Positions 24,967-57,110 of a stretch of DNA of 64,000 bases are shown in pieces (position 1 is the first letter of the stretch; each line of letters begins with the position of its first letter). This stretch comes from an uncultured Pirellulales bacterium (GTDB lineage Bacteria > Planctomycetota > Phycisphaerae > Sedimentisphaerales > Anaerobacaceae): the NCBI GenBank assembly GCA_964462515.1, contig CAYWXK010000013.1, forward strand, positions 4,675 to 68,674, written 5' to 3'. The notes below the pieces were generated by a model. The model was not told where the DNA came from, searched no databases, and saw only the letters and a program-made list of their open reading frames with translations. Position numbers and translations under genes: made by a program.

Positions 24967-25086
24967 CCCCGCACCAATGGTTCGACAAGCTCACCATCCC
25001 GAGCGGAGTCGAGGGATGGTTCGCCCAAAGTCGCAAATGTCCGGTCTTTTACAAGAAATGCCCACTACGATTCAATTGGTGCGGGG
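24967..25086. repeat. inverted-repeat element with 'ccccgcaccaatgg ... ccaattggtgcgggg' terminal arms and internal hairpin
   Basis: 14-15 bp terminal inverted repeats enclose about 90 bp that contain the hairpin ccatcccgagcggagtcgagggatgg. The element lies between convergent genes (ferredoxin and proC) and is a member of a dispersed family (see findings). Confidence 0.75.
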
Positions 25087-42977: not shown

Positions 42978-43309
42978 CGCCTCGGCCTTTTATTATGAAA
43001 ATGCAAACGACTGTTCCCTTATAATTACCTTGGCTTATAATAACCACGACGCCAGCCATAGTCAAACCAAAATCTGCTCCCGACTGTCCAGGATTTCAGG
43101 CCACTTTCTACCGACTTTAGAGGAATTTGTAACGAAATCGCCTATCAAAAAACCAAAGTTTTGCCCGGCGGCGGTTGACAAAGATGAAAGAAACGGATAT
43201 ACTTACATTATAAGCGGAATTCTAAGAAGTGTTCTTCGCCGGCAAGAAGCCGGTTGGTATTTTTTTGTAATTTAATAATTTGGAATTAGATGGAGTAGGA
43301 GAAATAAAA

Positions 43310-45271
43310 ATGAGAGGGCATTTCAGCATTACTTACTGTTTGGTGGCATTCGCCTTTCTATTGGTGATGGATAATATCGGCTTTGCGGAGCGGATTATAT
43401 ACGTCGATGTTAACGCCACAGGAGCAAACAACGGCACAAGCTGGACCGATGCCTACAACTACCTCCAGGATGCCTTATCTGATGCAAATTCTGCCGCCAA
43501 GCCGGTTGAAATCTGTGTTGCCCAAGGCATTTATAGACCAGATAGGAGCTTGGCTGAGCCAAATGGCACCGGCGACCGGGATGCTACATTTCAGCTTATA
43601 AACGGTGTTACTCTCAAAGGCGGCCATGCCGGCACAGGTCAACCAGACCCTAATGCCAGAGACATTGAGGCATACAAAACTATTCTCAGTGGTGATTTGG
43701 CTGCCAATGACATTCCGAATAAGCCATATTACAGAGATAAAAACACAGAGGAAAACAGCTACCATGTGGTAACAGGTAGTGGGACAGATGCGACCGCTAT
43801 TCTCGATGGTCTGACGATTACTGCCGGTAACGCTGACGCCTCCTATTCAAGTTCAAATCCAAAGAGTCTCGGCGGCGGTATGTACAATGACTCTGGTAGC
43901 CCGACAGTGACGAACTGCATATTCAGTAAAAATGTGGCTGCTTATGGCGGCGGCTGTGTATATAACTACTACGGCAATCCGAGCTTCGCAAACTGCGTGT
44001 TCAACGGGGGCATCGCTTTTTACGGCGGGGGTGGGATGCACAACGAACATAGCAACCCAACGCTGACCAACTGCACGTTTAGCGAGAACGTAATAATTCC
44101 CACCCTGATGGCCATAGGTGGCGGTGGGGTGTACAACTATTACAGCAACCCTATACTGACCGGCTGCACGTTCATTAAGAACTGGAGCGCCAGTAACGGC
44201 GCCGGCATGCTCAACTGGTACAGCAGTGTGACACTAATGCGCTGTACTTTTACCGAGAATTTGGGGAGGGGAATTTATAACCGCAATAGCAGCAGTGCAA
44301 AGCTAACCGACTGCACGTTCAACAAAAACTCAGGCGGCGGAATATGCAATGAGAATGGTACCCTGACGCTCAGCAATTGTATCTTCAGCGAGAACTCAGC
44401 AACGGCAGGAGGCGGTATTTATAATATGTATATGTATAACATGAGCAACAACATAACATTGATTAACTGTAGTTTTAGCGGCAACTTGGCTGGCGATGGT
44501 GGCGGAATATACGGAGGTAGCTCGAAGATTGTCAACTGCACATTCAGCGGAAACTTGGCAGAACGTTCAGGTGGTGGGATGTACACCATAGGTGAGCCAA
44601 CGGTTACCAATTGCATATTCAGTGGAAACTCGGCAGTGGACTACGGTGGTGGAATCTATTGTCAACCATTGCGCCTAACACTGACTAACTGCATGTTTGC
44701 TGGAAATTTGGCAAAAAATGGTAAGGCCATGACATGTGAAGGGGGGATTCCGGTCGGTGTCGTGATGCAGGGAATCAACTGTATTCTCTGGGATGGCGGT
44801 GATGAAATATTCAAGAAATTTAATTCAAAGGTTGATATTACATACAGTGACATACAGGGCGGCTGGCCAGACGAAGGGAACATTGACAAAGACCCATGCT
44901 TTGCCGAGCCAGGTTATTGGGACCCAAATGGAACGCCTCAAGACCTAAATGATGACTTCTGGGTCGATGGTGATTATCACTTGAAATCCCAGGCAGGCAG
45001 ATGGGACGCAAACGAAGGACGATGGACGAAGGATGAAGTGACAAGTCCCTGCATTGATGCGGGTGACCCAAAAAATCCTATTGGCTATGAGCCATTCCCT
45101 AACGGCGGAATCATCAATATGGGCGCCTATGGCGGAACTTCTGAAGCGAGTAAATCATACTTCGGCGAGCCGGTCTGCGAAACCATTGTCGCCGGCGACA
45201 TAAACGGCGACTGCATCGTCAATCTTATAGACTTCGCTCTTATGGCGTTGCATTGGATGGAGGAAAAATAG
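43310..45271 (+). CDS. secreted right-handed beta-helix repeat protein (paralog family) with C-terminal dockerin-like repeat
   Basis: Signal peptide. About 18 tandem units (TNC.F..N.A..GGG.YN..S.P.LTNC). C-terminal module GDYHLKSQAGRWDANEGRWTKDEVTSPCIDAGDP...GDINGDCIVNLIDFALMALHW is about 85% identical to the C-terminus of the 55515-56870 product. Confidence 0.8.
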   Translation: MRGHFSITYCLVAFAFLLVMDNIGFAERIIYVDVNATGANNGTSWTDAYNYLQDALSDANSAAKPVEICVAQGIYRPDRSLAEPNGTGDRDATFQLINGVTLKGGHAGTGQPDPNARDIEAYKTILSGDLAANDIPNKPYYRDKNTEENSYHVVTGSGTDATAILDGLTITAGNADASYSSSNPKSLGGGMYNDSGSPTVTNCIFSKNVAAYGGGCVYNYYGNPSFANCVFNGGIAFYGGGGMHNEHSNPTLTNCTFSENVIIPTLMAIGGGGVYNYYSNPILTGCTFIKNWSASNGAGMLNWYSSVTLMRCTFTENLGRGIYNRNSSSAKLTDCTFNKNSGGGICNENGTLTLSNCIFSENSATAGGGIYNMYMYNMSNNITLINCSFSGNLAGDGGGIYGGSSKIVNCTFSGNLAERSGGGMYTIGEPTVTNCIFSGNSAVDYGGGIYCQPLRLTLTNCMFAGNLAKNGKAMTCEGGIPVGVVMQGINCILWDGGDEIFKKFNSKVDITYSDIQGGWPDEGNIDKDPCFAEPGYWDPNGTPQDLNDDFWVDGDYHLKSQAGRWDANEGRWTKDEVTSPCIDAGDPKNPIGYEPFPNGGIINMGAYGGTSEASKSYFGEPVCETIVAGDINGDCIVNLIDFALMALHWMEEK

Positions 45272-46760: not shown

Positions 46761-48050
46761 CTATTTGAGCGGATTAAGCACTCGGCCGATAAACAGGATG
46801 CTGCCGGAATGGTTATCGCGAATCACAAACACAAAGGGATGGTCTGCTCTAAAGACCGGCGTCTGTGTTGGGCCAGCCGATGTTGTTTTCATTATTACCC
46901 CTGTTGCCGCTGCTGCCTCAGTGCCTTCCTCGCTTACATCGACATAAGCCTTGTGGATAACTGCTGAGATAAAAAGGTCTTTTTTGCCATTGATACCGGA
47001 AAAATCTGCCACGTCCGGTATGAAGGCATCTGTCATACCCATCGACTTGAGAACGTCGGCTAAACTAAACTGGCTGGTCATTTTGAACTTTGGAATCGAA
47101 ACGATAACCTCACATCTGCGAGGTTTAGCCAACCACCTGGAGAGGTTCTCCAGCGTAAGTGTTTTCTCAAAGGCGGCAAGACCATCGAATTTCTTAGGCA
47201 GCAATATAATCATTGAAAGCTCGTTATCAACATAAGGCAACTCAAGTTCTTGAAAGTCCTCGGTCTGCGTATAGTTGAAATCTGCTGTCTGGTTCATCAT
47301 TGGAACATCAATCTTGCTGCCAGTCTGCAGTGTAAATGGGGCCTGCTTCGTATTTTTTTCTTTGAATTGTCTTGCCCACTTGCCCTTAAAGTAAATAGCG
47401 TTGGTTAAAACCAGTCTGGTCATCGAATCCAGAACGCCCCTGGCAATCAGGTCCTTGATTTTATTGTTGGTCTTTTCCTCCACCCAGGCATTGATAGTCT
47501 GGCGTGCCATTTCGGTAGTGGTTACAAAATCAACTTCGTTGAGGCGCCCATCATAATCGGTTTTGATAAGATTCAAAAACTCTTCGAGAAATCCGTAACC
47601 TTTTTGGCCCCACAAAGCATTAGCAACGGCAAGCTCATACTTACCCTTTTTGCCTCTGGCGTTGAGGTCTTTTATGACTTTCCCGAATGCCGAGGAAAAT
47701 TGCTCATATTTCCAGGGTGCTCTTGTTTTTTCCTGTTTCTTAGCTGCCTGCATATCTATTGGAACCGTATAGGTGGGAAAACGCAGGACCTCAGCCATTT
47801 GGGAACCAGTTTGGCCTTGCGCACCGGCGTAAGCCATTGCCAGGGCCGTCGAGATGCTGTAGGGCGAAAAAAACAGGTTTTCTCCCTTGTCTCTCAGCCT
47901 TGCATACAGCTCAAGAGCGAATTTGCTGTTTCCCTGCACGATGGTTTTTCTTTCTTCATTTTCATTTAGGGTTTGGCCATCGCTGCCCAGGCAACAAGCT
48001 GCGATTACAATCACTGCTGTTGCGACTAATACAGATTTAATCGTTTTCAT
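46761..48050 (-). CDS. serpin (serine protease inhibitor) family protein, secreted
   Basis: Signal/lipoprotein-like N-terminus. Serpin core (FFSPYSISTALAMAYAGAQGQT). Hinge and reactive-centre loop GTEAAAATGVIMKTTSAG, then the serpin C-terminal signature FRADHPFVFVIRD...ILFIGRV. Confidence 0.85.
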   Translation of the reverse strand: MKTIKSVLVATAVIVIAACCLGSDGQTLNENEERKTIVQGNSKFALELYARLRDKGENLFFSPYSISTALAMAYAGAQGQTGSQMAEVLRFPTYTVPIDMQAAKKQEKTRAPWKYEQFSSAFGKVIKDLNARGKKGKYELAVANALWGQKGYGFLEEFLNLIKTDYDGRLNEVDFVTTTEMARQTINAWVEEKTNNKIKDLIARGVLDSMTRLVLTNAIYFKGKWARQFKEKNTKQAPFTLQTGSKIDVPMMNQTADFNYTQTEDFQELELPYVDNELSMIILLPKKFDGLAAFEKTLTLENLSRWLAKPRRCEVIVSIPKFKMTSQFSLADVLKSMGMTDAFIPDVADFSGINGKKDLFISAVIHKAYVDVSEEGTEAAAATGVIMKTTSAGPTQTPVFRADHPFVFVIRDNHSGSILFIGRVLNPLK

Positions 48051-48189: not shown

Positions 48190-48430
48190 TCAATGTCATT
48201 CCCGCACAGCCTGCCCTGAGCGAAGTCGAAGGGTCGTTAGCGGGAATCCATTTTTGTAGGGTGTGCTCAGCACACCATTTTCCTTATCGTTTAGCCCCGT
48301 TGCTTGCGACGGGGTGCGATTCATCTTTGTAGGTAGATTATTTTCACACGATGTAGCACGGGCTTCCAGCCCGTGCAAACACGGCCAAGCCTGTCCTGAG
48401 CGTAGTCGAAGGGATGGCCGTGTTACTTTC
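48190..48430. repeat. cluster of nested hairpin repeats including two copies of 'cctgagcgNagtcgaaggg'
   Basis: Outer inverted repeat cattcccgc...gcgggaatc (48197-48248) encloses ccctgagcgaagtcgaaggg. Hairpin ccccgttgcttgcgacgggg (48296-48314). Hairpin gcacgggcttccagcccgtgc (48356-48377). Inverted repeat acacggcca...tggccgtgt (48379-48424) encloses cctgagcgtagtcgaaggg. A third cctgagcgcagtcgaaggg copy lies at 52193-52211. Confidence 0.7.
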
Positions 48431-48571: not shown

Positions 48572-48781
48572 ATGGCAGAGAACATTTTGTATTACGGCGA
48601 TAACCTGGAAATACTCCGCCGCTATATCGAAAACGAATCCGTTGACCTTGTCTATCTTGACCCGCCTTTAAACTCGGGCAACGACCAGTTAAAGACAAAC
48701 ACCGCCCTGCAAATGGAAGCAGCAAAAATAGAGTTTAAGGTTATATGTTTAGCATTTATTTTGCAAATTCGGTTCTTTTAG
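48572..48781 (+). pseudogene. truncated N-terminal fragment of a beta-class (DPPY-type) N6/N4 DNA methyltransferase
   Basis: ENILYYGDNLEILRRYIENESVDLVYLDPPLNSGND matches the N-terminal 'cut-down' motif (LYxGD...IDLIxxDPPYN) of ParB-/M.RsrI-type MTases. The ORF ends after 69 aa, and no remainder of the gene is found downstream. Confidence 0.65.
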
Positions 48782-48836
48782 CTGATAATTTCTCTGGGAA
48801 AATGAAAACCGATGATTCAAAGGGCCTAAATTCAAA

Positions 48837-51362
48837 ATGTTACAAGTAAAACAACAAATACTGGCTGGCTTCAAGAGCTGTGGATATAAAAACAATCTTC
48901 TTAAAGAAAGATATCAGTATTTTGACGGCAAAGAAAGCAAAACTGCGGAAATAGTCGGCTTTAGTCAGCCAACATATAATTCCTCCACTGCGTGCATCGC
49001 TGCAATTGATAAAACTAAATTGAATGGAAACAGGATATCATCCTATCAATTGCTTGGATGTCCGGTGTTGTTGGTTTGTGATGACAGCGGCTTACAGTTC
49101 TGGAAAAACTCCGGTACTGATGTAATACTTCACGAAGAAGTCGACACGCAAAAATTGGCAGGATTTTTTAAAAAATATGAGAAGGATTTTTCACCACAAA
49201 GCATCTACAGAGCCAAAACAATCGGGCGTGTGAAGAAAGAGTATCAACTTAGTTTTGTCGATCGCGGCTTAATGTCAATTGTCGAAGAACAGGAAGGAAA
49301 ATATTTATCTGGTCTAACTGAAAGAATTATCAGATCGCTGCGATCAGATTGTGGGACAGTTAAAGAAGATAGCAAGTTTGAGAAGTGGCTTTTTCAGGCG
49401 GGCTTCTGGCTTATTGGTGCAAAGATATTAAAAGATAAAGGCGTTGAAGGATTCAAAACACTGGAAATTTCGTCGGTGAGGGATTTGGTTAATAAAATAC
49501 AGAGACATTATAATGCGGCACAAAAACTTGATATATCAAATACCGTGCAAAGAAAAGCACTTGAAAAAGTTGCAAGAGAAATTGTAGAGCCAGTATCAAG
49601 TTTTGCTCATCTTACGACCGAGTCATTGGCTTATGTTTATGAAAATACCCTTACAAGCAAAGACACCAGAAAGGTTTTGGGGACCCATGCAACGCCTTCA
49701 TGGCTTGTTAATTATATAGTCTGGGGGGAGCTAATTGACTGGATTGAAAATATCCCCCAAGAACAAAGAGTTATTCTTGAACCAGCTTGCGGTCATGCGC
49801 CATTTTTGACTGCTGGAGCAAGATTATTAGCCGACCCTCTTCTTTACAAAGGCGATGAAAAAGGCAGGCACGATTATCTCAAACGTCATCTGACTGGGAT
49901 AGACATGGACAGCTTTGCCGAAGAAATTGCCAGATTGGCACTTACTCTGGCGGATATCCCAAACCCCAATGGATGGAAAATCCAACATTCAGACATTTAT
50001 GAAGATGATATTTTAAAAAAGGCAGCTCAAAAAGCCACAATACTCTTTTGCAACCCACCCTTTGAAAACTTTTCCACAAAAGAGAAGCAGAGATACGGCA
50101 ATGCTATTACAACCGGCAATAAAGCCGCAGAAGTTCTTGTAAAAACATTGCCCTATATGCCAGCTAATTCTGTCTTCGGGATTATTTTACCACAGGGTTT
50201 TCTTCACAAAAGAAACCTTGCTGATTTGCGAAAGTATATTTTGGACAATTTTGAATTAAGAACTATCTGCAATCTGCCAGATAAAGTTTTTGCTAAATCA
50301 GGACATTTGTCCACTGTATTATTAGGCCGTAAAACTAAATCTAAAAAGAAAATTAATTATTTGAATATAACCAAAGCCAATCTTGAAAATTTCAAAAACA
50401 CCTATCAGGCAGCCGATGCAGAATTAGTCGGCCGAGATACATTTTATGAAGCGAAAGATTACAGTTTTAGGATTCCGGAATTAAAAGAAGTCTGGGATTA
50501 TTGCAGACACCTTCCTAAGCTCAAAAAATATGTAGAAATTGGTAGAGGGATTGAATACAAAAGTGGACTGGATATTGATGATATAATGAGACATACACAA
50601 TTTCCGGGTTCTAAAAAGGGGTTTTATTCTTATGAAAAAGATACATTAATAGAACGACTCCCAAAATTAGTCTGGCTAAATGTATCTGAAAAGGTAGTCA
50701 ATACTTACGCCAAAGGGATGATATGCCAACCCTTTATATTATTAAACCGAATTAGAAGCAGTAGAACTCCTTGGAGACTAAGAGCTTGGATAGACTTTGA
50801 GGGCCATCCATGCGGGAAGGCCTTTCTCGCGGTTTTCTCAAATAAAGACATTTCTTTATATTCTATTTGGGCCCTCTTAAATTCACCTTTTGCAAATGCT
50901 TACATGTATGACCATTGTATGGCTCAAGATAATAATGAGGGCATATTAAAAAACATGCCAGTAAATTTTGAAGGCAAGGACTTGTCAAAGATAGATTCTT
51001 TGGCACAAGAATATTTCACACTTAACAGTAGCGAATATGTATTACGCGATATAAAGCACCTTAATGAAAAGAAAAGGCAATGCCTGGTAGCTATTGATGC
51101 TGAAATACTGCGATTGTACAATTTACCCCCTCGCCTCGAAAAAACGCTGCTCGACTTTTTTGAAGACATTCAGCGCAAAGGTGTAGACTTCGAGTTTGAC
51201 AGATATTACCCGGAAGGTTTCGACTCTTATATCCCTTTGTATATGTATATATCTAAAGAGTTTCGAAATTCTTCCATCGAAAACGTTAAAAAGTGGATTG
51301 AAAATAACCGTTCACCTGAAGTGATTGAGGCATTTAAGACTGCTGCTAAAATTAAGAAGTAA
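48837..51362 (+). CDS. gamma-class N6-adenine DNA methyltransferase fused to a C-terminal TRD-like region and an unassigned ~130-aa N-terminal domain (type IIG/IIL-RM-like architecture)
   Basis: Motif X GTHATPSWLVNYIVW, motif I (SAM-binding) VILEPACGHAPFLTAG and motif IV ILFCNPPF. N6-Mtase C-terminal signature GIILPQGFLHKRNLADLRKYILDNFELRTICNLPDKVF. A further 350 aa of putative target-recognition region. Visibly AT-rich compared with neighbouring genes. Confidence 0.75.
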   Translation: MLQVKQQILAGFKSCGYKNNLLKERYQYFDGKESKTAEIVGFSQPTYNSSTACIAAIDKTKLNGNRISSYQLLGCPVLLVCDDSGLQFWKNSGTDVILHEEVDTQKLAGFFKKYEKDFSPQSIYRAKTIGRVKKEYQLSFVDRGLMSIVEEQEGKYLSGLTERIIRSLRSDCGTVKEDSKFEKWLFQAGFWLIGAKILKDKGVEGFKTLEISSVRDLVNKIQRHYNAAQKLDISNTVQRKALEKVAREIVEPVSSFAHLTTESLAYVYENTLTSKDTRKVLGTHATPSWLVNYIVWGELIDWIENIPQEQRVILEPACGHAPFLTAGARLLADPLLYKGDEKGRHDYLKRHLTGIDMDSFAEEIARLALTLADIPNPNGWKIQHSDIYEDDILKKAAQKATILFCNPPFENFSTKEKQRYGNAITTGNKAAEVLVKTLPYMPANSVFGIILPQGFLHKRNLADLRKYILDNFELRTICNLPDKVFAKSGHLSTVLLGRKTKSKKKINYLNITKANLENFKNTYQAADAELVGRDTFYEAKDYSFRIPELKEVWDYCRHLPKLKKYVEIGRGIEYKSGLDIDDIMRHTQFPGSKKGFYSYEKDTLIERLPKLVWLNVSEKVVNTYAKGMICQPFILLNRIRSSRTPWRLRAWIDFEGHPCGKAFLAVFSNKDISLYSIWALLNSPFANAYMYDHCMAQDNNEGILKNMPVNFEGKDLSKIDSLAQEYFTLNSSEYVLRDIKHLNEKKRQCLVAIDAEILRLYNLPPRLEKTLLDFFEDIQRKGVDFEFDRYYPEGFDSYIPLYMYISKEFRNSSIENVKKWIENNRSPEVIEAFKTAAKIKK

Positions 51363-51365
51363 AAT

Positions 51366-51842
51366 ATGTCAGGTTATTTATTCGATACTAATATTTGGTC
51401 GTATGCCTTTGGGCAAGCAACGTTTGTTACTGATAAAATCCAAAATCTTGAAAAATCGCAGATATATCTTTCAGCAATTGTGTGGGGTGAGGTGGTTTTT
51501 GGCGCTAAATCTAATCCCAAATTCAATTTCGATGAATACAGAGAATTTATTTACAAAGATAAACCTTTAATTTTGCCTATAGATGAACATGTCGCAGAAG
51601 TGTTCGGGTCGTTGAAAGCAGAAATATTTGAGAATAAATCTGTTAGAGCTATGAGATCAAACTCAGGGAGGGCTAGCTTATTTAAAAATCCGATACCAGC
51701 GAAAGATATGGGAGTCCATGAGAATGATTTGTGGTTAGTAGCCCAAGCTCTTGCATATAATCTTGTATTAATTACAAGTGATCGTATGCATACTATTTTG
51801 GAGTTAGCTCCTAAAGAACTTAAACACGAAATATGGCAATAA
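51366..51842 (+). CDS. PIN-domain nuclease (VapC-like)
   Basis: YLFDTNIWSYAF (first Asp), AIVWGEV (Glu) and ENDLWLVAQALAYNLVLITSD (distal Asp residues) match the PIN fold. The start is 4 nt after the MTase stop. No small antitoxin-like ORF is adjacent. Confidence 0.7.
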   Translation: MSGYLFDTNIWSYAFGQATFVTDKIQNLEKSQIYLSAIVWGEVVFGAKSNPKFNFDEYREFIYKDKPLILPIDEHVAEVFGSLKAEIFENKSVRAMRSNSGRASLFKNPIPAKDMGVHENDLWLVAQALAYNLVLITSDRMHTILELAPKELKHEIWQ

Positions 51843-52564
51843 ATTCAGCATGAAGGTTAAATTTGACCCGAAAGAATTTATGGCGGAAAAAAAGAATCGA
51901 AATAATGGGGACAAATAATGGGAACAGCCCGTTTTTCGACCAACTCCTCGTTTTTCCCCTTCGCCCAAACCAAAATTTACCCGCCGACTTGTCCGGCGTA
52001 GCGCAAGCGGAGTCGGAAGATTTATCGAAGGCGGGCTTGCCCGCCGTTCTTTCGCTTTAAGGCATCTCTCCGTAGGAGTAAAAAATTCAAAGCATAAACC
52101 CGATTGAAACTTGTTTCAGAAAGGGTTTAATTTGAATTTAAGGTGCATTTATGCACTGCCTTAAAGCAACTCTCTGTGGCCTCGGTGCCTGTCCTGAGCG
52201 CAGTCGAAGGGACCTCTGTGGCTAAATTTTTTTATGATATCGTTAGATTTTTATTGAATAAATAGGCATAATCTGGTATAATGCACACGCAATTGGAGGG
52301 AATAACTCCCGCCAGGAGCGGCAAGCTCGCGGAGAACCGCACGCTAAGGAACAGCAGTTCCATGAATTAGTCCATTTTAGCCGCAAAAAAGGTTCAGAAT
52401 GATAAAATCTTATGAAAAACGCAGTGCTTAATATACTTACTGAAAATTCGTGTTTATTCGTGGTTACTTTTGTGCCTTTTGTGATGAAAATAATCTGTGT
52501 TAATCTGCGTAATCTGTGGTTCCCTTTCTGTCTTTGTGTCTTGGTGGCTTTGTGGCTATGAGTC

Positions 52565-52795
52565 AATTATGCAAAACAAAGCCAATTTGCTGGACACTCA
52601 AATGAACGTAACCTCCGCCTATATAACCAGTTACCAATTACCAATAACCAATTACCAATATGCAAAACAAACCCAAACAAAGCCAATTTCCGGAGCAACA
52701 AAATGAACACAACCTTCTTATTAACAAATGATTATGAACAAATAACTATGAACAATGAACCAATAAAAACAAACCCAAACAAACCCAACTTGTAG
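52565..52795. repeat. A/C-rich low-complexity tandem repeats (caaacaaagccaatt units; taccaat heptamer x4)
   Basis: ttaccaattaccaataaccaattaccaata (52631-52660). Two imperfect copies of gcaaaacaaa(cccaaacaa)agccaattt...aaatgaac at about 52568 and 52662. caaacccaaacaaacccaac at 52770. Confidence 0.6.
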
Positions 52796-55514: not shown

Positions 55515-56870
55515 CTAATTCTCTTCAAGCCAGTGAAATGCAATAAAGGAAAAATCTTCGAAATTGACCTCGCAGTCACCATTGATGTCGCCGGCGACGA
55601 TTGTTTCGCAAACAGGTTCGCCGAAGTATGATTTGCTTGCCTCTTCTGTGCCACCGTAGGCACCCATATTTATAATCCCACCATTGGGGAACGGCTCTAA
55701 GCCGATAGGACTTGCAGGGTCGCCGGCATCAATGCACGGACTTGTAACATCATCCTTCGTCCATCGTCCTTCGTTTGCATCCCATCGTCCTGCTTGTGAT
55801 TTTAAGTGGTAATCACCATTCGTAGCATCTGTAAATAAAGGGTCTGTCGTAATGTTTCCTATTCCTTCACCCTGCCAATCTTGAATACAGGAATAAGAAG
55901 GCACAGAACAATCGATTATTTGTGAATCTGTATATCTGGCCTTGTTCTGCCAGATAATACAATTTGCAATAACGCCACTACAATTGCTCAATCCCGCTCC
56001 CCAGTAGTATACCTCGTTGCCAGAGATAGTATTATTCTCAATTTCGCCATTGCACTTGTACAACCCACCACCCACACCGTATGTTGAGTTACCATAAATC
56101 ACATTATTACGGATACTTGCACTGCAGTAGGCCAGTCCGCCGCCATGACTATTGGCTCTGTTATGTGAGACCGTATTGCCTTGGATGACACCATCACAGC
56201 TACACAGACCACCGCCCAAATAACCTGCTTTGTTATTGGTGATAATATTTTTTTGGATACTTCCATCGCAGTCGGCGAGACCACCACCATACATGGCTCC
56301 ATTCCCACTTATAAGACAGTTAATAATCTCGCCATCACATCCAGCAACTCCACCTCCACTACCAGCTCCTAGTAGTGGCCAACTGAAAGCCATACTATTT
56401 ATGATGCGGCAGTTGATAATTTTCGGCCCGCTCCCACTCTCACAATATATGGCGCCACCAAGACTTCCTAAAGCTTGAGTAACGTAACCATTGCAAATTG
56501 TGACTCCATTCAATTCGGAACTTAGATTTTCACCACTATGGAAATAAAATCCTCGGTGTGGATTCTCCTGTGTGCCGTTGCAGTCGATTATTGTCGTAGC
56601 GACGATGTTCGGGTCGTTTGGGTCTGCGCTGCGGACAGTAATGGCCTTTCCCTTAAAATCAATGTCGCGGTTTCCATCGACCGTGTATGTCCCAGCAGAC
56701 ACGATTACGACATCGCCATCGTTGGCATCATCAATCGCAGCCTGAATGGTATTAAAATCATAGCCACCTCCCTGGCCGACTGTAATCGTCCGCCCCTGCG
56801 CTATTCCTGCCGCCACTAATAGGAACATCCCCACCGCCAGCCCCCATAAGATTGTCAATTTCCGCTTCAT
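55515..56870 (-). CDS. secreted right-handed beta-helix repeat protein (paralog) with C-terminal dockerin-like repeat
   Basis: Signal peptide MKRKLTILWGLAVGMFLLVAAGIAQG and beta-helix units. Its C-terminal module is nearly identical to that of the 43310-45271 product. Start refined to the ATG at 56870. Confidence 0.8.
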   Translation of the reverse strand: MKRKLTILWGLAVGMFLLVAAGIAQGRTITVGQGGGYDFNTIQAAIDDANDGDVVIVSAGTYTVDGNRDIDFKGKAITVRSADPNDPNIVATTIIDCNGTQENPHRGFYFHSGENLSSELNGVTICNGYVTQALGSLGGAIYCESGSGPKIINCRIINSMAFSWPLLGAGSGGGVAGCDGEIINCLISGNGAMYGGGLADCDGSIQKNIITNNKAGYLGGGLCSCDGVIQGNTVSHNRANSHGGGLAYCSASIRNNVIYGNSTYGVGGGLYKCNGEIENNTISGNEVYYWGAGLSNCSGVIANCIIWQNKARYTDSQIIDCSVPSYSCIQDWQGEGIGNITTDPLFTDATNGDYHLKSQAGRWDANEGRWTKDDVTSPCIDAGDPASPIGLEPFPNGGIINMGAYGGTEEASKSYFGEPVCETIVAGDINGDCEVNFEDFSFIAFHWLEEN

Positions 56871-57110
56871 TTTCCCATCTCCAACTATTGCCTCTCTTAA
56901 GTCAAAGAGCAAATATCGGTCGGTGTGTTCTTCCAATGCTTATTTTCTCACAACTACCATTTAATCAAAAACAGTTATCTATGTCAACTACAAAATCCCC
57001 AAAATGCAAAGAAATGTCAAAACCAGGTGGGAAAAAACAGTGAAAAATCACTTGCATTTATCGCTGTATTTGCGCAGACTTTCTGTGAGTAGGTTATAAG
57101 AGGTTGAATA

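Follow-up and report, generated by a model that had tools for sequence, protein, structure and literature searches.

Restriction-modification (RM) and toxin-antitoxin (TA) systems are usually regarded as analogous but separate. Characterized VapC toxins are RNases, and RES proteins are toxins that target NAD+ and have no nuclease activity. In PrrC-EcoprrI, an anticodon nuclease is linked to a type Ic RM enzyme, kept latent and unleashed upon perturbation (PMC1484252), and in MbcA the C-terminus sterically blocks the active site of the RES toxin (PMC6436930). Here, we analyzed a two-gene locus in a 64,000-nucleotide stretch of DNA (the window) from an uncultured Pirellulales bacterium, in which a large N6-adenine methyltransferase (MTase) precedes a PIN-domain protein and in which elements of RM and TA systems appear to be physically joined.

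Two genes in a low-GC islet

A sequence-only reading of the window had described the pair as a "giant" MTase translationally coupled to a PIN nuclease. Both open reading frames were found at 48837-51362 and 51366-51842, and the motifs LGTHATPSW, LEPACGHAPFL, CNPPFENF, FGIILPQGFL and LRTICNLPDKVF are all present in the 841-aa translation. This length is normal for the family, so that "giant" was an overstatement, and the intergenic gap from the MTase stop to the PIN start is 3 nt (TAA-AAT-ATG) rather than 4 nt. The features of the locus are as follows.

48679..48836, + strand: 158-nt leader conserved as part of the mobile unit, recognized by its DNA identity among loci
48761-48789, + strand: promoter-like site TTGCAA-17-GATAAT inside the leader, a consensus match only
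48837..51362, + strand: MTase scaffold protein with target-recognition domain (TRD), whole gene including stop codon (ORF, 841 aa)
48837..49241, + strand: PD-(D/E)xK-like (restriction-endonuclease fold) domain, aa 1-135
49242..49616, + strand: helical linker, aa 136-260, with the conserved motif QLxFVDxGLMxxxExxxG (AF2 secondary structure, conservation)
49617..50426, + strand: gamma-class N6-adenine MTase catalytic domain, aa 261-530, with motif X, motif I and NPPF (Pfam, PDB)
50427..50981, + strand: TRD, aa 531-715 (aligned by Foldseek with type IIG/IIL enzymes and CamA/M.BseCI)
50982..51170, + strand: C-terminal helices, aa 716-778 (IDAEILRLYNLPPRLEKTLLDFF), conserved across all subfamilies
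51171..51359, + strand: partner-specific C-terminal tail, aa 779-841, proposed PIN-binding (antitoxin-like) module
51366..51842, + strand: VapC-like PIN-domain protein, proposed toxin/effector (ORF, 158 aa)

The MTase-PIN unit forms a 3.2-kb islet with a GC content of 0.36-0.40 as compared to about 0.46-0.50 in the flanks, in line with the AT-rich locus noted earlier. Its leader shares 76-85% DNA identity with the DNA upstream of the MTase gene at loci L004/L005, L007, L008, L009, L010 and L024, whose genomic contexts are unrelated to one another. The decayed MTase gene and the flanking repeats that had been pointed out were also recovered. The former is a remnant of a beta-class MTase at 48581-48676, of which only the first 33 codons are left and which abuts the unit, and the latter are copies of a 26-nt element (positions 48209, 48389 and 52187; 4 matches were reached in 0 of 100 shuffles) located outside the conserved mobile unit. 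Scans for tRNA genes and Rfam families gave no match in the flanks of the islet.

The catalytic core of the large protein was matched by Pfam N6_Mtase (3e-18, aa 264-530 of 841) and by the PDB sequences of StySJI M, M.BseCI and EcoKI M. The AF2 model (pLDDT 81.7) gave BpuSI, BrxX/PglX, DrdV, MmeI and CamA as top Foldseek matches. The MTase family comprises 688 representatives at E<=1e-30. N406-P407-P408-F409, E315 and G319 are invariant, and the motifs of an active N6-adenine MTase are thus present. The TRD is conserved to a similar extent as the remaining protein (mean pairwise identity 0.42-0.50). The region of about 350 aa previously likened to a TRD does include this domain, but it also comprises the C-terminal helices and then the partner-specific tail.

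Sequence similarity to type IIG/IIL enzymes is confined to the MTase core. The fold predicted for the N-terminal domain corresponds to that of the DrdV and BpuSI nuclease domains, and what had been called an unassigned domain is a degenerate nuclease fold. The earlier statement that no obvious PD-(D/E)xK motif is seen held at the level of motifs, but aa 1-135 are predicted to adopt a PD-(D/E)xK-like fold. A clear N-terminal nuclease was looked for specifically: across 75 family members, none of the Asp, Glu or Lys residues on the beta-strands of aa 1-110 is invariant, position 48 varies between D, N, E and S, and there is no conserved catalytic triad. Judged by this conservation pattern, the N-terminal nuclease domain has lost its catalytic residues. 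The large protein is best read as a descendant of a type IIG/IIL RM enzyme that retains a TRD and an apparently active N6-adenine MTase.

The 158-aa protein is matched by Pfam PIN (7.6e-12). Its acidic residues D7, E42, D121 and D139 are kept in 35-36 of 36 partner PINs, which bears out the claim that they are intact. The NCBIfam VapC model covers only aa 4-87 (5.6e-11, 42.9 bits versus a cut-off of 140), and VapC is the nearest outgroup of the partner PINs, which are distinguished by a conserved Trp at the C-terminus and by a family-specific insert at about aa 95-117. By analogy with VapC, the substrate of this PIN may be RNA.

Conservation of the gene pair and its genomic setting

The idea of a conserved two-gene unit was borne out, and none of the outcomes that had been named as refuting it was observed. 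A small gene occupies the same slot in 74 of 74 species-genome loci with downstream DNA (38 PIN, 36 HNH), in three of three plasmids and in 61 of 63 metagenome loci (53 PIN, 4 RES, 3 of the metallo-beta-lactamase (MBL) fold and 1 of no known type). In the distant subfamily the partners are PIN at 55 loci, RES at five, MBL-fold proteins at three and one protein of no known type. The partner gene always lies directly downstream of the MTase gene in the same orientation, the two being about -4 to +9 nt apart, and the partner types are interspersed on a rough neighbor-joining tree of the MTases. The HNH partner resembles Septu PtuB (4e-12) and the MBL-fold partner resembles PDC-M48B and the RT-associated MBL. 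The PIN, HNH, MBL-fold and RES partners all belong to toxin or defense-effector families.

The pairing of the MTase with a small downstream gene is not due to chance. Coincidental neighbors, in which an orphan MTase and an orphan VapC lie side by side but are functionally unrelated, would be in keeping with the standalone relatives that each gene has and with nothing further. Synteny of the two genes with almost no space between them extends over more than 130 independent loci, with PIN identities as low as about 28% (the identity of partner PINs across loci drops to about 28-35%), no partner-type gene was found elsewhere within the co-conserved loci, and in 72,556 plasmids this PIN subfamily was found only beside the MTase, so that coincidence is effectively refuted. 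The MTase and the PIN almost certainly work as one unit. An ordinary type IIG enzyme next to an orphan VapC was likewise ruled out by the synteny and the dead nuclease domain.

No further component was detected. The absence of an antitoxin-sized ORF stood up to inspection: besides the 3-nt gap between the two genes, the stretch from the PIN stop to a convergent gene measures only 148 nt in an 89%-identical homologue, and no missed antitoxin ORF or other small conserved ORF was found on either side of the pair. Among 333 neighboring ORFs of the window's subfamily there is no recurrent third gene, and the genomic contexts differ; a MerR-like upstream gene is confined to a portion of the distant subfamily. 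The family amounts to several hundred clusters at 50% identity, mostly in Planctomycetota, Acidobacteriota, Omnitrophota and Verrucomicrobiota and on rhizobial plasmids. A census of 121 nearest neighbors placed the planctomycete modules among housekeeping genes instead of in defense islands, and since most of these neighbors are housekeeping genes, island context was not counted as support. A PADLOC census around the loci returned isolated matches only.

This setting bears on the possibility that the pair serves pure addiction by post-segregational killing, in which the tail would be a fused antitoxin and the PIN its toxin, and the pair would stabilize itself and an epigenetic MTase on a chromosome or plasmid without sensing foreign DNA. 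Solitary mobile islets among housekeeping genes, plasmid copies flanked by transposases, the lack of relatives of the module in a scan of viral contigs and the TA-like logic of tail and toxin are all compatible with such a role. What counts against it is the strict preservation of MTase motifs, TRD and N-terminal domain across members with about 25-90% identity, which is more than an antitoxin carrier would need. In addition, the effectors overlap with known defense effectors, e.g., the PtuB-like HNH and the MBL, and the plasmid copies adjoin Shedu and a BseRI-like system. We therefore regard pure addiction as improbable.

The C-terminal tail and the partner protein

The tail of the MTase differs with the type of partner. 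Tails of the PIN type share an identity of 0.51 with one another and those of the HNH type 0.46, as against only 0.20 when the two types are compared; the other MTase domains retain 0.35-0.49 identity between partner types. In a mirror-tree analysis the partial correlation with PIN divergence was greatest for the tail (0.41), which is weak support only, since the sequence pairs are not independent. A search of PDB and Pfam with the PIN-type tail profile gave no similarity to VapB or another known antitoxin.

The RES-type relatives are more informative in this respect. Their partners score 1e-16 to 8e-20 as RES proteins, and their MTases carry an extra C-terminal candidate Xre/MbcA/ParS antitoxin module, with matches to Pfam _M (3.2e-5 and 1.5e-3) and Pfam _C (1.5e-4 and 9.8e-3) that are each below the gathering score but collinear and recurrent. 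The top PDB match of the RES-type tail profile is MbcA (0.0055). The evidence comes from five loci of the distant subfamily with 25-29% identity to the window protein, and the window's own system carries a PIN and neither a RES protein nor an MbcA/ParS-like module. These matches suggest that the RES-type tail is homologous to an MbcA/ParS-like antitoxin module. By extension, the tail of the window protein may physically bind and inhibit the PIN, and we consider it probable that the PIN acts as a toxin and that the MTase holds it through this tail.

A different explanation for a partner-specific tail is that of a docking site in a split type IIG restriction enzyme, where the MTase-TRD protein would recognize and methylate a DNA motif, and the PIN, HNH or MBL-fold protein would act in trans as the DNA-cleaving subunit and replace the dead cis nuclease. 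Unmethylated DNA would then undergo classical restriction, with no cell death involved. The architecture and fold of type IIG/IIL enzymes, the cis nuclease domain without catalytic residues and the tightly coupled expression agree with this explanation, as do the partners themselves: three of the four identified types have nuclease folds, HNH is a common catalytic domain of restriction endonucleases, and trans-restriction fits most family members because DNase activity is possible for each of the PIN, HNH and MBL-fold proteins. What speaks against it is a RES partner that is a toxin and no nuclease, together with a RES-type tail that appears homologous to an antitoxin blocking the active site of its toxin. 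The PIN is moreover VapC-like, i.e., it resembles proteins characterized as RNases. In a survey of the PIN superfamily, PIN nucleases were absent from type II RM contexts (PMC5499597). A split restriction enzyme is thus unlikely in our view. The sequence-only reading had offered both an in-trans nuclease and a toxin whose partner is the MTase; the latter is favored on account of the swapping to RES and the antitoxin-like tail, and the former has become the less favored option.

Proposed mechanism and comparison with known systems

The finding that relatives swap both the toxin and the tail of the MTase suggests an undescribed hybrid of RM and TA systems. We propose a toxin-armed methyltransferase, whose type IIG-derived scaffold for methylation and DNA recognition has an exchangeable toxin attached to its antitoxin-like tail and which combines sensing in the manner of RM with killing in the manner of TA systems, and we assign this reading a probability of about 0.5. 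The last ~60 residues of the MTase would bind the co-translated PIN and keep it latent, like an antitoxin, and methylation at the recognition sites would label DNA as self. Release or activation of the PIN would follow if the scaffold encounters foreign sites that lack methylation, or if it is inhibited or lost, and the PIN would then cause cell arrest or the destruction of nucleic acids. The module would thereby act as an RM-style sensor with a TA or abortive-infection effector. That unmethylated DNA is the trigger is put forward tentatively. It is also conceivable, with a similar degree of reserve, that the family forms a distinct immune or selfish class, in which a methylation-competent but nuclease-dead type IIG sensor of self and non-self DNA gates an exchangeable toxin (PIN, PtuB-like HNH, RES NADase or MBL-fold protein) by means of an antitoxin-like C-terminal tail that is exchangeable as well.

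The MTase-PIN family appears to join RM and TA physically, as an MTase and DNA reader with an antitoxin-like tail and a plug-in toxin. If the reading of an exchangeable toxin is true, the family would provide a direct evolutionary and mechanistic bridge between RM and TA/abortive-infection systems. Confirmation would show in what way epigenetic self-marking can be coupled to abortive-infection effectors, add a family of defense or addiction systems, largely from poorly studied phyla, and yield a compact, sequence-programmable toxin switch. It also affects the annotation of MTases and PINs, which are currently labeled "N-6 DNA methylase" or "type I RM methylase subunit" and "VapC", respectively.

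The assignment of the pair to no named RM or defense family was upheld. Scans with PADLOC, NCBIfam and Pfam gave only generic MTase matches for the large protein, PADLOC has no dedicated model for the pair and gave no match for the PIN, and no description of the pairing was found in the literature searched. The MTase-PIN unit also differs from MANTIS/Gao_RL and from the PIN systems of DefensePredictor, as inspection of these showed. The MTase-TRD part has weak profile and structural matches to BREX PglX/BrxX, MADS MAD2 and MANTIS, with which it shares the idea of a methyltransferase as discriminator of self and non-self. However, the scores are far below the family cut-offs, with 34 bits versus 720 for MAD2 and 27 versus 500 for PglX, and none of BrxA/B/C/L, PglZ, MAD1-8 or MtsA/B/D was found in any locus (333 flanking ORFs, PADLOC census); these scores and missing genes rule out a fragment of BREX or MADS. 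MANTIS is a four-gene, ATPase-dependent system, unlike the two-gene unit described here. The likeness to Septu concerns the HNH partner of the sister clade and not the PIN of the window, and HNH-type loci have an MTase upstream and no PtuA ATPase.

With PrrC-EcoprrI the locus may share, by functional analogy, a ribonuclease toxin that is genetically linked to an RM/MTase complex, silenced by it and set free upon its perturbation. The proteins are unrelated (ABC-ATPase-ACNase versus PIN), and the RM partner of PrrC is a type I multi-subunit enzyme without tail fusion instead of a single-chain type IIG-like protein. The PIN, with its four acidic residues, best family matches to VapC and translational coupling to the upstream gene, is reminiscent of VapBC; unlike in VapBC, the upstream gene encodes no small VapB with a DNA-binding domain but the 841-aa MTase, and the tail of this protein is not similar to any known VapB. 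The five RES-type relatives correspond to the Xre/MbcA/ParS-RES systems MbcTA and ParST in having a RES toxin and an MTase that ends in an MbcA/ParS-like middle and C-terminal module, but this candidate antitoxin module is fused to an MTase-TRD scaffold of ~800 aa and is not a standalone protein. The type IIG/IIL enzymes BpuSI, MmeI and DrdV are the best structural matches of the 841-aa protein and have the same order of PD-(D/E)xK fold, helical linker, gamma-class N6-adenine MTase, TRD and C-terminal helices. Unlike these enzymes, the 841-aa protein has an N-terminal domain without conserved catalytic residues, ends in an additional tail specific to the partner and is obligatorily accompanied by a second gene, which codes for a small toxin-type protein.

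The two genes and their surroundings

The module comprises two same-strand genes, an 841-aa gamma-class N6-adenine methyltransferase (MTase) with a target-recognition region (TRD) and a small PIN gene directly downstream, preceded by a leader:

48581-48676 (+), remnant of a beta-class (DPPY-type) DNA MTase, first 33 codons, abutting the leader
48679-48836, conserved leader (158 nt) directly ahead of the MTase gene
48837-51362 (+), MTase gene, ORF of 841 aa
51366-51842 (+), PIN gene, ORF of 158 aa

The two ORFs recognized in the sequence-only reading were borne out by their positions and by Pfam matches to N6_Mtase (aa 264-530 of the large protein, 3e-18) and PIN (small protein, 7.6e-12). The MTase motifs named there (LGTHATPSW, LEPACGHAPFL, CNPPFENF, FGIILPQGFL, LRTICNLP) are each present in the translation, and the locus is AT-rich as described, with a GC content of 0.36-0.40 compared with ~0.46-0.50 in the surroundings. 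The intergenic spacing, given as 4 nt, is 3 nt (TAA-AAT-ATG).

The leader, which contains a promoter-like site at 48761-48789, is 76-85% identical to its counterparts in six other loci of unrelated context, while no conservation past the PIN stop was observed across the compared loci. Since the leader is conserved and conservation ends at the PIN stop, the mobile unit extends from about 48679 to 51850. The beta-class remnant is cut exactly at the start of this leader and shares 72% identity with residues 2-33 encoded by a 558-aa gene of a homologous locus (L037, 6909-8585, -); no further parts of the beta-class MTase gene were found within the window. Because only the start of that gene is present, followed by the leader, the 69-aa ORF at 48572-48781 is a chimera of the truncated beta-class gene and the islet leader. 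The decayed MTase reported previously is real as a remnant.

Direct copies of a 26-nt repeat, GCCTGTCCTGAGCGNAGTCGAAGGGA, flank the islet to the left (48209-48234 and 48389-48414) and to the right (52187-52212), and a degenerate copy lies at 24998-25016. The previously noted flanking hairpin repeats thus exist on both sides, and the copy at 48389 sits within a hairpin (48378-48424, 15-nt arms), but all three islet-flanking copies fall outside the mobile unit. Similar sequence was found in other planctomycete loci, among them L032 (12881-12907) and L007 (3936-3962, just after its PIN gene). The repeat is probably a REP-like element, and an att-like role is possible. Scans of the flanks revealed no tRNA or Rfam element near the islet. 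As the neighbours of the module in planctomycete genomes are mostly housekeeping genes, a defence-island context adds no support.

Other features were observed nearby. A ~101-nt unit is present in three copies (starts 52563, 52664 and 52766; 73-92% identity across a 26-nt core) in the AT-rich spacer 3' of the islet, and this region (52563-52791) contains neither an ORF nor an Rfam match. Beta-helix-repeat proteins encoded at 43280-45271 (+) and 55515-56936 (-) bracket the region in inverted orientation, both ending in a near-identical, dockerin-like C-terminus of ~110 aa (HLKSQAGRWDANEGRWTKD to GDINGDC.VN..DF...HW.EE). Just upstream of the islet, 46761-48050 (-) encodes a 429-aa secreted protein that appears bacterial serpin-like by eye. 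In four planctomycete loci, AP2 + HNH_3 homing-endonuclease-like genes lie one or two genes from the module (L006 4874-5605, L013 4373-5008, L019 5184-5759, L025 6227-6814), which hints at a mobile context.

Conservation of the pair

Full-length conservation is a property of the large protein's family: 688 cluster representatives were retrieved at E<=1e-30 (1.84 billion searched), and identities among the best 120 homologues listed were 42-100%, mostly over the full length. One genome per species was scanned for this family, yielding 80 loci, and partners were counted in the 74 whose downstream sequence reaches 300 nt or more. All 74 carry a small same-strand gene right behind the MTase gene, typically spaced -4 to +6 nt from it; this small gene encodes a PIN homologue in 38 loci and a ~200-aa HNH protein in 36. 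The PIN partners keep this position though their identity to the window PIN drops to ~28-35%. The 89%-identical homologue lies between genes for sigma-70 and a sulfatase, a setting unlike that in the window, and no recurrent third gene was detected among 333 ORFs flanking the module loci. Across 72,556 plasmids, members of this PIN subfamily were found only adjoining the MTase, the next-best PIN matches being canonical VapC toxins (E ~7e-4). Both this confinement and the unfailing occupation of the same slot speak against a chance neighbourhood of MTase and PIN, which we consider extremely improbable.

Decayed copies were also seen: PIN is broken by a frameshift in L018 (3126-3624), and the partner is absent from L090, where a RES-type MTase is truncated, and from L123, where the MTase tail is shortened. 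No partner gene without an MTase was seen among the fetched loci.

Scaffold, exchangeable partners and the C-terminal tail

The AlphaFold2 model of the large protein (pLDDT 81.7) best matches type IIG BpuSI, BREX BrxX/PglX, type IIL DrdV and MmeI, and the MTase-TRD proteins CamA and M.BseCI in the PDB. Neither NPPF (406-409) nor motif I varies in the family. Across 75 members, no invariant acidic or Lys residue was found on the strands of the N-terminal domain (aa 1-135, PD-(D/E)xK-like fold), and its single semi-conserved acidic position, residue 48, is N in the window protein. The large protein looks like a type IIG/IIL-like enzyme with a live MTase and a dead nuclease domain. In the PIN partners, the acidic quartet D7, E42, D121 and D139 is kept in 35-36 of 36 distinct proteins.

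More distant full-length relatives (25-29% identity) reside on rhizobial plasmids, as MTase + PIN in Sinorhizobium and Agrobacterium, the latter adjoining a Shedu gene, and as MTase + RES-domain protein adjoining a BseRI-like gene in Rhizobium sp. Q54. A metagenome scan seeded with this distant subfamily yielded downstream DNA for 63 loci, in which the partner is PIN (53), RES (4), a metallo-beta-lactamase (MBL) fold (3), a 136-aa protein with zero family matches (1, L148) or absent (2). The MBL-fold partner (334 aa, L157-L159; Pfam Lactamase_B 3.6e-10) resembles PDC-M48B and RT-associated MBL effectors (PADLOC RTasMBL-like). In a rough NJ tree, deep branches of the MTase mix PIN- and HNH-linked members. 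Of the 57 distant-subfamily loci whose upstream DNA is available, 29 have a gene of ~160 aa that shares 4 nt with the beginning of the MTase gene (for example L087 3510-4007 and L088 3468-3956; loci L086-L121 and others). One member matched the MerR_1 HTH family (4e-4), and the gene may encode a regulator, which would make this subfamily a three-gene system; it was not found in the window's subfamily.

The last ~60 aa of the MTase (aa 779-841 in the window) vary with partner type. PIN-type tails share a mean identity of 0.51 and HNH-type tails, which are ~50 aa longer, one of 0.46, but between the two types the value is only 0.20; for all other MTase domains it is 0.35-0.49 between types. Tail divergence also tracked PIN divergence more closely than that of any other domain (partial correlation 0.41; other domains <=0.21; 35 PIN-type pairs, which are not independent). 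Tails at the MBL-fold loci and L148 are unlike those of other types. RES-type MTases (872-945 aa) carry an extra C-terminus matching Xre-MbcA-ParS_M (3.2e-5 and 1.5e-3) and Xre_MbcA_ParS_C (1.5e-4 and 9.8e-3), which follow one another in the Xre/MbcA/ParS antitoxin, with each match under the Pfam gathering score; a profile of five such tails retrieved MbcA (6fkg) as top PDB sequence (E=0.0055; ParS 0.4).

We propose that a conserved MTase/DNA-recognition scaffold carries an exchangeable toxin together with an exchangeable cognate tail that would keep the toxin latent, a reading to which we assign a probability of roughly one half. Within this model, that the tail binds and inhibits the toxin is an inference, as are the trigger and what the PIN acts on. 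In a split restriction enzyme, the small protein would instead be a trans restriction subunit; this is rather unlikely because the RES partner, an NAD+-targeting toxin and not a nuclease, comes with a cognate tail resembling an antitoxin module, which favours the latent toxin. A pure addiction module appears less probable still. Because the MTase motifs and TRD are strictly retained, methylation and site recognition would belong to the function of the toxin-armed MTase, self/non-self discrimination being the most natural role, and the toxin would be released by unmethylated foreign sites or by inhibition or loss of the scaffold.

Comparison with known systems

Neither the PIN and RES proteins nor the upstream proteins are covered by a PADLOC v2 model, and the scaffold matched generic MTase models alone; its NCBIfam scores for MADS MAD2 and BREX PglX are far under their cut-offs. 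A PIN-superfamily survey explicitly reported that no PIN nuclease was found in type II RM contexts (PMC5499597). The architecture is not described in the Type 2 TA survey, the polymorphic-toxin survey, DefensePredictor or the MANTIS paper, and nothing matching the MTase-partner pairing was found in the full-text literature searched, coverage of which is necessarily incomplete.

Type IIG/IIL enzymes share the fold (BpuSI, DrdV, MmeI), but the large protein lacks conserved N-terminal nuclease residues. VapC is the family nearest to the window PIN (best NCBIfam match 5.6e-11, well under the equivalog cut-off; best PDB matches, chains 6nkl and 3zvk), whereas a family-specific insert (~aa 95-117, RPEQLxDPxT in most) and a C-terminal Trp are common to the PIN partners. 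Likeness to the Septu effector PtuB (4e-12) belongs to the HNH partner of relatives. The tails of the RES-type relatives resemble the antitoxin C-terminus of MbcTA, which sterically blocks the active site of the RES toxin, and removal of ten C-terminal residues from MbcA abolishes neutralisation (PMC6436930). For release of a toxin held by an RM enzyme, the closest functional precedent would, by analogy, be PrrC, which the type Ic enzyme EcoprrI keeps silent and a phage inhibitor of EcoprrI sets free (PMC1484252). It is conceivable, at somewhat less than even odds, that the module will prove to be a distinct class; we regard it as an RM/TA hybrid of known kinds.
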